Notes: generated by a model not told the origin, from the sequence alone. Shown: positions 1 through 12,613, numbered from the stretch's first letter. The stretch: DNA of 12,613 bases from Elainellaceae cyanobacterium (GCA_051117555.1 JBNPEG010000118.1:1-12613), one strand, 5' to 3'. Program-made: numbers and translations.

Positions 1-491
1 CTAAGTTCATATAACAACTTTCTAAATCTATCTGGCATTTCAGCATCACTATATTTTACCTCCATTTCGTCTAGCTTCCCTTCCACTCTTTCAAGTTCTT
101 CGACCAATCGCGCGATATCAGACTTTTCAAATTTTTCATTTAGTTCTTGTATAACCCATGATCTTACTTTAAGAAGGAAAACTTCATTACTTCGATACTT
201 AATATAATCTTTAATTCTTTGCTCTTCATCTTTCGCTGATTTGAGATTTTCAAGAGTTTCTTCTTCATAAGTAAGCAATACTTTGTCTACAGCCACTGAC
301 ACATCTTTTTTGTTAAAAGGTTTGTTAGCAAATAAACCTAAGATGCCCGCTAGAATAGCAATCACTCCTGAAAGTATTGCAAAAATCCTATCTGATACAT
401 GATTAAAGTAGTAGGCAACTGAAATAACGACAACCAGAGCAAGACAAAAAAGTGTCAAAAATCTGAATATCTGATAAGGCTGAATTCTCAT
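1..491 (-). CDS. Partial AT-rich hypothetical membrane protein (two N-terminal TM segments plus coiled-coil region); runs off the left edge
   Basis: Manual translation from ATG at 491 stays open for 163 codons to the edge: MRIQPYQIFRFLTLFCLALVVVISVAYYFNHVSDRIFAILSGVIAILAGILGLFANKPFNKKDVSVAVDKVLLTYEEETLENLKSAKDEEQRIKDYIKYRSNEVFLLKVRSWVIQELNEKFEKSDIARLVEELERVEGKLDEMEVKY... Not in the ORF track because there is no stop in the window. Confidence 0.8.
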   Translation of the reverse strand, partial: MRIQPYQIFRFLTLFCLALVVVISVAYYFNHVSDRIFAILSGVIAILAGILGLFANKPFNKKDVSVAVDKVLLTYEEETLENLKSAKDEEQRIKDYIKYRSNEVFLLKVRSWVIQELNEKFEKSDIARLVEELERVEGKLDEMEVKYSDAEMPDRFRKLLYEL

Positions 492-10899: not shown

Positions 10900-10930
10900 C
10901 GGTAATGCTCCAGCCTTTATCCCCGATAGT

Positions 10931-10965
10931 CTAACAGGCAAGAAGGATAGCTCGTTGCCTGTTAG
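10931..10965. promoter_or_regulatory. 11-bp perfect inverted repeat about 30 nt upstream of ribD
   Basis: CTAACAGGCAA 10931-10941 / TTGCCTGTTAG 10955-10965, 13-nt loop. A regulatory role is inferred from position only. Confidence 0.4.
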
Positions 10966-10997
10966 TTCTTCTCTAGACGCGATGTGCAACTATTTTG

Positions 10998-11045
10998 CCC
11001 TCACCTCCCCAACCCTCACCTCCCAAATCTGGGCGAGGAGGGGGC
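10998..11045. repeat. C-rich/G-rich palindromic intergenic repeat
   Basis: CCCTCACCTCCC(C)AA twice, then ATCTGGGCGAGGAGGGGGC, which can pair imperfectly with it. Confidence 0.55.
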
Positions 11046-11122
11046 TTGAAGCAACGCCCTCCTCGAAGAGTGGGTGAGTGCAGAATTTATCGGCGTTCTA
11101 GAAAAGCTGCACATCGCCTTAG

Positions 11123-11260
11123 TTAAGTATTCAACCCCCGGATGCGTTTGGTGAGAATCCGCATGACTTCATTCGGATTCACCGTGGGCAAAGGTTTCGA
11201 CCATTCACCGGGTTCGGCATAGTCGAGTTGATACATCTGCATGATGTGATGGTTGACGAC
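11123..11260 (-). pseudogene. 3' fragment of a small cyanobacterial hypothetical gene, 5' part lost at a repeat element
   Basis: Manual translation VVNHHIMQMYQLDYAEPGEWSKPLPTVNPNEVMRILTKRIRGLNT*. It resembles, from memory, a cyanobacterial family with YAExxxWSxxLPTxxPxEVMxIL. The frame is closed upstream by TAA (11273-11275) inside the repeat. Confidence 0.6.
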
Positions 11261-11261
11261 A

Positions 11262-11397
11262 TAGAAAAACCATTAGCTCACCAACCATCCGTTGTACGGG
11301 CATGGCAATGCCTTAGCGAAGCCATGCCCATAGGGCTATTGCCCCTCCGAAAATCATTCATGCCCCTCCGAAAATCATTCGCCGATGAGCAATGCCC
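11262..11397. mobile_element. MITE/REP-like dispersed repeat, copy 2 (inverted relative to 828-972)
   Basis: Reverse complement matches 828-972 with three substitutions and lacks the extra ATTTTCGGA duplication of copy 1. Confidence 0.8.
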
Positions 11398-11696
11398 AGA
11401 TATTCACAGGTGAACCTCAGATATTCACAGGTGATGCTCAGATATTCATTCACCATGCTCAGATAATCAGCGGTGATGTGTGGGATATTGACTGGCGATG
11501 ATTAGACATTCACGTGTGATGCTCAACTATTCACAGGTGATGCTCAGATATTCATGGATGAATCTCAGATATTCATGGATGAATCTCAGATATTCGCAGG
11601 TGATGCTCAGATATTCACAGGTGATGCTCAGATATTCACGGGTGAACCTCAGATATTCACGGGTGAACCTCAGATATTCACAGGTGAACCTCAGAT
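11398..11696. repeat. Tandem array of 14 x 21-bp units, consensus AGATATTCACAGGTGA(TG/AC)CTC
   Basis: Units start at 11398, 11419, 11440, 11461 (22 nt), 11483, 11504, 11525, 11546, 11567, 11588, 11609, 11630, 11651 and 11672, plus a partial unit at 11693. Confidence 0.97.
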
Positions 11697-11749
11697 CAAT
11701 TGAACAGGACTTACGCACATGGAATCTTAGATGCTAGATATAGCGTGAT

Positions 11750-11800
11750 AGATCCCCCCTTCCCCCCTTGATAAGGGGGGTGCCGCAGGCGGGGGGATCT
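11750..11800. repeat. Branched palindromic element inside the MITE
   Basis: Outer AGATCCCCCC/GGGGGGATCT encloses CCCCCCTT-GAT-AAGGGGGG and GCC-GCA-GGC. Confidence 0.85.
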
Positions 11801-11879
11801 TGCAAAGCGCATACATTTACCACTACTGCGTAAGTATTTGATTGACTGACAAAACTTACCAGAACCCAGACCATTCAAA

Positions 11880-11940
11880 GGGTCAGGTAACCTGACCCCT
11901 ACATTGTCCGAAATTCCGTAGGGGCGAGGTTTCCTCGCCC
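11880..11940. repeat. Inverted pair of GTAG-type REP palindromes (REPIN-like)
   Basis: Minus strand GTAG-GGGTCAGG-TTA-CCTGACCC (11902-11880) and plus strand GTAG-GGGCGAGG-TTT-CCTCGCCC (11918-11940), 15-nt spacer. Confidence 0.85.
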
Positions 11941-11948
11941 AATGCAGC

Positions 11949-11972
11949 AATCCAAAATCCAAAATCCAAAAT
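11949..11972 (+). repeat. Heptamer short tandem repeat (AATCCAA) x3.4, STRR-like
   Basis: AATCCAA AATCCAA AATCCAA AAT. Confidence 0.85.
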
Positions 11973-12022
11973 TGGTCTAAGTCCTGTATAGATTCTCTGC
12001 AAAATCTAACCCCACGATCGCG

Positions 12023-12514
12023 CTAACTCGATGCTGACTCATTCTCTTCATTAGGCTTGGGCGATCGCCCTTTTATTGCTTTGAATAAGCTTCCGAGTTG
12101 CTCGGCGATCGCCTTGAGTCCGGGGGTTTTCTTGGCGGCTGTCTTCACGTAGTCATAAACCGTCAAACTGCTGCCCATCGCTTCACTGCCGACTGCCATC
12201 AGGGTGTCGTCGACTTGCTCGGTGAGCTGGCGTAATATCATCAAGAGTTCGGCGAGGTCGCTGGCAAGACGGTAATCGTTAGCATAGCCGTCTAGGTCAA
12301 AGCTGGCTGGCAGAATGTTGCGATTGCTTTGCGCAGCGCTAAAGCTGGTTTGGACAAAGGCAAGGCGCTTATCGCCCATTTTATAAAGCCGTCTGCGTTC
12401 GTCAACGGAGAGTGTCACCAAGAACGGCAGCTTTGCTTGGATAGTCTGAATGGCTTCCTGGATTTCTAGACGATCTTCGGGGGTGAGGGTGGCGTCAATA
12501 TTTTGATAAGGCAT
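12023..12514 (-). CDS. Hypothetical helical protein (163 aa), unknown function
   Basis: Clean ORF from ATG 12514 (MPYQNID) with AAGGA upstream; amphipathic helices; LPFLVTLSVDERRRLYKMGDK and VGSEAMGSSLTVYDYVK motifs, recalled as a conserved uncharacterised family; basic/acidic C-terminal tail. Confidence 0.88.
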   Translation of the reverse strand: MPYQNIDATLTPEDRLEIQEAIQTIQAKLPFLVTLSVDERRRLYKMGDKRLAFVQTSFSAAQSNRNILPASFDLDGYANDYRLASDLAELLMILRQLTEQVDDTLMAVGSEAMGSSLTVYDYVKTAAKKTPGLKAIAEQLGSLFKAIKGRSPKPNEENESASS

Positions 12515-12530
12515 TGTCAATGCATCCTTG

Positions 12531-12557
12531 TGGGAAAGTTCTTTTGTAAGTTTCCCA
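12531..12557. promoter_or_regulatory. Inverted repeat immediately upstream of the RBS of the 163-aa gene
   Basis: TGGGAAA 12531-12537 / TTTCCCA 12551-12557 with a 13-nt spacer. Confidence 0.35.
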
Positions 12558-12613
12558 AGTTAAGCCAATGTGCAACATTTCCTGCTATTGATTCAGGGTG
12601 GGTGATGCTGACA

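Follow-up and report, generated by a model that had tools for sequence, protein, structure and literature searches.

Why should the gene of a small protein be followed by a long array of 21-bp tandem repeats, and do the two belong together? The question is raised by a 12,613-nucleotide stretch of DNA from an Elainellaceae cyanobacterium (GCA_051117555.1 JBNPEG010000118.1:1-12613; the window), which is the whole of contig C23 (12.6 kb) in a filamentous cyanobacterial genome (G000) of 6.06 Mb. The original prediction, made from the sequence alone, placed here a gene for a 163-amino-acid (aa) helical protein (12514-12023, minus strand) and an array of 14 copies (11398-11696), and proposed that they form a unit. 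Both are real: the protein (P0001) has 778 homologues at E<=1e-3, and Tandem Repeats Finder (TRF) delimits the array at 11392-11696, with 14.5 copies of 21 bp. We find that this helical protein and the 21-bp array behind its gene are a real, conserved two-part module, the proposed unit being strongly supported by comparative genomics (64 of 75 loci, ten of ten loci of the P0196 subfamily, and the paralogues described below).

The array was scored by TRF at 293, with period 21, 78% matches and no indels. Read in register, each unit consists of a conserved 12-nt core, CTCAGATATTCA on the plus strand, and a variable 9-nt part; adjacent units are often identical pairs, and a single 1-nt phase slip lies in two degenerate central units, near 11473-11500. 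The units abut head to tail, without the unique spacers of similar length that mark clustered regularly interspaced short palindromic repeats (CRISPR), as had been foreseen.

The pairing of gene and array was examined in 80 loci retained from 319 relatives in reference genomes, most of them Nostoc and hence not independent, along with Tildeniella, Myxacorys, two Leptolyngbyaceae, a Lyngbya and Komarekiella. The enrichment of period-21 arrays downstream of homologues, which had been put forward as a test of the unit, is found: at 64 of the 75 loci with the required flank (at least 600 bp), the first 1.5 kb after the stop codon contains a period-21 array of at least four copies, as against 0 of 76 upstream. 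Nine of the 11 misses show raised lag-21 or lag-42 self-similarity just past the stop (0.44-0.65, with other lags mostly <=0.40); the remaining two are L075, which has a period-42 array, and L039, which is without any periodicity. The core CTCA[GA]A..TTC is recognisable beside P0001 orthologues across genera, from Nostoc to the window's genome, and such persistence is notable for non-coding DNA at this evolutionary distance. In the P0196 subfamily (34% identical), all ten metagenome loci have a 21/42/63-bp repeat that starts 82-211 nt past the stop, spans at least 100 bp in eight of them and has the core T[TC]CGGA. These loci were found by a metagenome search with a single distant protein and lie on low-G+C contigs.

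The same association is seen among paralogues. With the family profile, five full paralogues and one fragment are detected in the window's genome, and five of these six have an array no more than 400 bp away: downstream for C23, C29 and C47, upstream for C248 and C200, and absent for C61. The chance of an array near a random gene-sized interval is 0.017, and the binomial probability for five of six is 8e-9. In a sister species, a 97%-identical orthologue of the C29 gene retains the same array family downstream and a 96%-identical C200 orthologue retains its own array family upstream, while on a complete Nostocaceae-like chromosome a different array stands behind each of five of the six paralogues. 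Within the protein family, each lineage retains an array sequence family of its own. With gene and array adjacent on the DNA, their joint inheritance would by itself produce this cognate pattern, which therefore shows lasting linkage and not binding. At one locus of genome G158 (L105:1565-2813), two tandem family genes stand around a single 21-bp array, and this gene-array-gene order suggests that, for some paralogues, an array now "upstream" may once have belonged, as a "downstream" array, to a neighbour since lost.

Could the pairing be a coincidence, the gene lying in repeat-rich junk DNA and the array being an unrelated product of slippage? The window's genome does contain 79 arrays (period 20-22, at least four copies) and many miniature inverted-repeat transposable elements (MITEs), and the unit family of the window also occurs without the gene. 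Nevertheless, the bias towards downstream positions (64/75 versus 0/76), the P0196 loci (10/10) and the binomial probability among the paralogues (8e-9) exclude such an origin in practice, and we give it only a very slight probability.

The spacer between gene and array, 326 bp long, is composite. The original prediction had read 282 bp (11705-11986) as a MITE insertion, without which the array would start about 45 nt after the stop codon. This stands for 11839-11952, of which blastn finds more than 15 copies of 85-97% identity on other contigs, that is, the many dispersed, near-identical, short non-coding copies expected of a MITE. The segment also varies between strains: a soil metagenome contig of a related strain, which bridges array and gene, has 72 other letters in place of 11834-11948. 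The claim does not extend to 11697-11838, which is unique in the genome (no other full copy and only a 47-nt partial match by blastn), or to 11949-11972, a heptamer run. On the related strain's contig the array itself has one additional whole 21-nt unit after 11569, a whole-unit change of copy number between strains. The idea that the original spacer was short agrees with orthologous arrays in other genera (L045, L011 and L022), which begin 52-64 nt past the stop.

In light of gene and array being a module, what might the array be: DNA site, RNA or coding sequence? Orientation bears on all three. Of 66 arrays, 19 have the core on the same strand as the gene and 31 have it on the other (16 being undecided by the crude motif), and at L074 and L087 the unit is the main Nostoc one exactly inverted. 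The next gene past the array likewise has no fixed strand (33 co-oriented, 19 opposite and 14 with none called, from crude open reading frame (ORF) calls). A flipping orientation argues against a co-transcribed RNA or peptide and is no obstacle for a double-stranded DNA site.

One of the partners first suggested was a heptad-repeat peptide encoded by the array and acting together with the protein. The 21-bp unit corresponds to seven codons, and an open frame does exist in many arrays elsewhere, but with a 21-nt unit chance alone should leave at least one of the six frames open. In the window, a frame check found no reading frame open along the full length of the array, and unit sequences differ among lineages. 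Together with the flipping orientation, these observations exclude a peptide in practice and make it the most remote of the explanations considered here.

A second suggestion was a co-transcribed RNA comparable to that of type III toxin-antitoxin (TA) systems. On this view, either read-through or a promoter belonging to the array would give a repetitive RNA to be bound or processed by the protein, with a sponge or antitoxin-like regulatory role. The position of the array close behind the stop codon would suit this, transcription of 52-nt satellites is reported for Bacillus coagulans (PMC8625621), and in the main Nostoc class each unit contains a clear short inverted repeat (mean stem 4-5 bp, 7-nt loop CTTTGAT), the first three pairs being Watson-Crick in 85-93% of 161 distinct units. 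However, this inverted repeat may be read equally well as a palindromic operator, there is no G-U versus A-C strand asymmetry in the main Nostoc class (100 versus 86), and outside Nostoc the hairpin potential is weak (mean stem 1.5-3.7). The window's array folds no better than its dinucleotide shuffles (z +0.67 and +0.22 on the two strands). In the 32 units of C23 and C231 (a gene-less sister array described below), the only plausible helix is 69.6% paired versus 67.7% when shuffled, a value reached by 79 of 500 shuffles, and covariation is not above that of shuffles. A hairpin or other RNA structure for the window's array family was accordingly rejected as a candidate on the folding, stem and covariation tests. 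Neither did Rfam give a match on window positions 10900-12613, and Pfam and PADLOC searches detected no ToxN-like or other RNase family. With the core on either strand (19 versus 31), an RNA of this kind is disfavoured, and we consider this explanation unlikely.

The same comparison can be made with ToxIN, a type III TA system with its array ahead of the toxin gene, on the same strand, and processed to RNA of about 36 nt. As there, a protein gene adjoins a short tandem array without spacers. Unlike ToxIN, the array lies downstream of the gene, its orientation flips and it has no detectable RNA structure; furthermore, no ToxN, AbiQ or CptN endoribonuclease family was detected (Pfam, PADLOC) and the model of P0001 is all-helical.

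The array is not confined to the gene. Its unit family also occurs at two loci without a family gene nearby, on C231 between convergent katG-like and ribonucleotide-reductase genes and on C221 upstream of a GH63-like gene. C231 has in common with C23 the left flank, two degenerate central units and a 40-bp stretch, found upstream of the gene in C23, and thus resembles the window locus minus the gene. The match of these 40 bp (12571-12610) is weak (E 1.5e-5 in a small search) and, as an array unit, not above controls; the possibility that the contig end enters a second array was dropped, the promoter region of the window being not above control windows. Genome-wide, the 79 arrays fall into about 34 loose single-linkage sequence groups, and period 21 accounts for 161 of 1367 TRF rows. 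By intergenic type the arrays show no clear bias, in a positional count that is unreliable because 29 of the 79 create spurious ORFs. The original prediction had named a 21-mer array occurring independently of the gene as a point against the unit; this is seen in part (C231, C221 and the 79 arrays), and the linkage to the gene still holds. Hence the picture is not one of a private module but of a gene-linked array plus dispersed arrays.

Such dispersal invites the explanation that gene and array are, or once were, mobile or self-propagating, with the protein helping arrays to form or spread, gene-less arrays as remnants and no benefit to the cell. It would account for a patchy distribution (15 of 201 genomes of the phylum, nine of 24 in family f7), for one to seven copies per genome, for a protein identity of 70-80% between cyanobacterial orders, for the many loci near contig ends and the varying neighbouring genes, for the clustering of arrays with MITEs, and for the gene-less likeness of C231. 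Set against this, there is no transposase, integrase or terminal repeat, and the flanks are housekeeping genes. On the complete Nostocaceae-like chromosome, the DNA similarity of the six copies is confined to the gene, plus the array in one pair. The family was found in 0 of 50,697 phage records and in one of 72,556 plasmid records. We therefore hold a selfish element to be improbable.

What of the protein itself? Its homologues, many of them 70-80% identical and all labelled "hypothetical", come from Leptolyngbya-like genera, Oculatellaceae and Nostocales. The superfamily comprises 2167 clusters (50% identity), of which 837 have E<=1e-10, and the commonest phyla among look-alike clusters in the Atlas are Cyanobacteriota, Bacteroidota and Pseudomonadota, in line with the distribution (cyanobacteria and Bacteroidota) named in the original prediction. 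P0001 has no family in Pfam, NCBIfam, PHROGs or PADLOC and no PDB structure by sequence profile, and the "PQLLE" motif was found in none of 80 aligned family members. Structure prediction and a Foldseek search, which had been recommended, gave a confident AlphaFold2 model (80-sequence alignment; predicted local distance difference test (pLDDT) 94.9, predicted template modelling score (pTM) 0.77) and no match at E<=1e-3. The model is all-helical, with helices at 12-28, 37-42, 48-63, 74-126 (53 residues) and 133-148. At 53 residues, the longest of these would measure about 80 Å, compared with about 71 Å for 21 bp of B-DNA, a length that would suit a ruler-like footprint.

Of the three mechanisms first put forward, a protein coating phased DNA sites fits best, and we tentatively propose, as a reading with nearly as much for it as against it, that the protein is a sequence-specific coat of its phased array as double-stranded DNA, with the dispersed arrays as further sites. 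The protein would recognise the conserved unit core (CTCAGATATTCA in the window) on double-stranded DNA, with one binding event per 21 bp, or two helical turns, so that all bound copies would lie on one face of the helix and the array would be coated cooperatively. The gene-linked array would be the home site of the protein and the arrays of the same family on C231 and C221 additional loading sites, the outcome being a structural or silencing nucleoprotein block, as opposed to an RNA or a peptide.

A layout of this kind is found in centromere-like arrays beside the gene of their binding protein, such as sopB-sopC of the F plasmid and parR-parC of R1 and pSK41 (20-bp repeats). As in these partition cassettes, tandem sites phased at about two turns directly follow the gene of a (here putative) binding protein, and for a DNA site the orientation is immaterial. 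Unlike them, the module is chromosomal, multi-copy and nearly absent from plasmids (1/72,556) and phages (0/50,697). The neighbourhoods examined for ParA/ParM, RNase, transposase and integrase genes (the window's genes and those around L011, L022 and L028) contain no partition ATPase, RNase, transposase or integrase, and thus no ParA/ParM-type nucleoside triphosphatase, within a window that ends 99 bp upstream of the 163-aa gene and leaves its neighbours on that side outside. The ribbon-helix-helix or ParB/helix-turn-helix fold of partition proteins is not among the structural matches listed for P0001, although a fold missing from such a list may still be present.

More speculative is the suggestion that presence of the family favours the genome-wide spread of period-21 arrays. 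In a sample of 201 genomes of the phylum, with four TCARA words at 21-bp spacing as the array proxy, at least six phased hits were counted in 12 of the 15 genomes with the protein versus two of the 186 without it; in G050, one of the 12, the score comes mostly from a heptamer run. Within family f7, genomes with the protein have 19, 8, 6, 7, 253, 81, 1, 80 and 91 hits and those without it 0, 1, 4, 0, 2, 0, 1, 0, 0, 0, 1, 0, 3, 17 and 0, a contrast that is not a clean statistic, and is given here with no test statistic, because the genomes of one family are kin.

That kinship is one of several points that weigh against the protein being a DNA coat. In array-rich genomes a reversed control pattern turns up about as often as TCARA, so that the count reflects the load of 21-bp arrays and not a specific core. 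G166 and G101 have many 21-bp-phased arrays and no family member even at E<=1, and their arrays may have another partner protein. Within the window's genome, about 34 array groups stand against five full paralogues, so that one protein per array family is impossible for all arrays. No array accompanies a 36%-identical homologue on a Thiodictyon megaplasmid. A unit-like site in the promoter region of the gene beats all control windows at only three of 65 loci, as expected by chance. As for the protein, the sequence and structure searches detected no DNA-binding motif or fold, the Foldseek search included, and the best match in a wide structural search (Z 5.9) was to generic helical hairpins. 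Moreover, P0001 is acidic (pI 5.1; family median 6.45), and its only basic patches are two short, conserved ones at residues 40-50 and 141-150.

The features of the locus are collected in Table 1.

Table 1. Features around the 163-aa gene and its array, in window coordinates.
Feature	Position	Strand	Basis
163-aa all-helical protein gene (P0001)	12023..12514	-	ATG start, translation; stop codon 12023-12025
Non-coding tandem array, 14.5 x 21 bp, core CTCAGATATTCA + variable 9 nt	11392..11696		Tandem Repeats Finder
Part of array-gene spacer, with G+C-rich palindromic stretch at ~11751-11799	11697..11838		Sequence, blastn
Small dispersed repeat (MITE-like) inside spacer	11839..11952		>15 copies on other contigs
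Heptamer run AATCCAA x 3.4 (short tandemly repeated repetitive (STRR)-type)	11949..11972		Tandem Repeats Finder; many short matches genome-wide
Second dispersed repeat, touching far end of array	11261..11396		blastn
40 bp upstream of gene, 82% similar to DNA directly after the C231 sister array	12571..12610		blastn

The genes of the window are ordinary chromosomal ones (MOSC protein, radical-SAM protein, TspO, racemase, alpha-amylase, Uma2, GNAT and RibD), and the array sits between ribD and the 163-aa gene, with housekeeping genes as flanks. Between ribD and the array lie two further dispersed small elements with many copies genome-wide, at 11112-11261 and 11261-11396. The latter has a 91%-identical copy at 824-972 of the window and holds a perfect 21-bp duplication at 11340-11380, a part that is shortened in its occurrences elsewhere; its 3' part is found ahead of the C231 sister array as well (blastn). 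Elsewhere in the window, a perfect 15-bp tandem repeat of 3.9 copies (TTGACACGCTCATGC) is found at 2212-2269, between a 78-aa ORF and the radical-SAM gene, and another 163-aa ORF (3-491, minus strand) runs off the contig start, has no Pfam family and is unrelated to P0001 by tblastn.

At other loci, the module often adjoins the gene of a solenoid protein with internal repeats of 80-96% identity. For the Nostoc loci (L024-L090, e.g. L028:5051-6553), this is a HEAT-repeat protein with 93/102/105-bp repeats just before or after the module, and in the genus of the window a TPR protein with 120/126-bp repeats (C29:81218-81881, C47:720-1697 and C61:646-1549; L101:2415-3598). This neighbourhood may be a part of the module or just repeat-rich surroundings.

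How does the module relate to repeats already described in bacteria? Repeats of constant size and variable sequence are reportedly the subject of a founding paper by Subirana and Messeguer in J Bacteriol in 2020. Non-coding tandem repeats of this kind, with units of 20-21 nt, are also described for Cyanobacteria, and two explanations have been put forward by the authors: transcription, or a protein whose polymerisation on DNA would require repeats of constant size (Subirana and Messeguer, Int J Mol Sci 2021, PMC8161180; PMC8625621). The array of the window agrees with these repeats in being non-coding and of period 21 (14.5 copies), and its genome agrees in having several families of the same period and different sequence (79 arrays, about 34 groups). 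Unlike those repeats, for which the accessible text of PMC8161180 names no partner protein, here a protein family is linked to one array per gene copy. Our literature searches returned the Subirana and Messeguer papers and otherwise unrelated work, with no paper tying a protein to constant-size repeats, the 2020 founding paper being represented in them only through the accessible text of PMC8161180.

Constant-size 20-21-nt repeats have been published as enigmatic, and the P0001 family is a concrete candidate for their partner protein. It is a family of 2167 clusters with a confident predicted fold that matches no solved structure, and its link to arrays spans cyanobacterial orders and extends to a distant low-G+C lineage. 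If the protein does coat its array, this would be a new bacterial way of marking or organising chromosomal DNA. A wider proposal, which we regard as possible and on the doubtful side, is that the family supplies the reader so far missing for bacterial constant-size 21-bp satellites, and possibly makes them as well: each paralogue would have its specific core, polymerisation would proceed with a two-turn 21-bp footprint, and period-21 arrays would accumulate after acquisition of the family. Bacteria would then, if this is true, have their own equivalent of satellite DNA, together with a protein dedicated to binding it.
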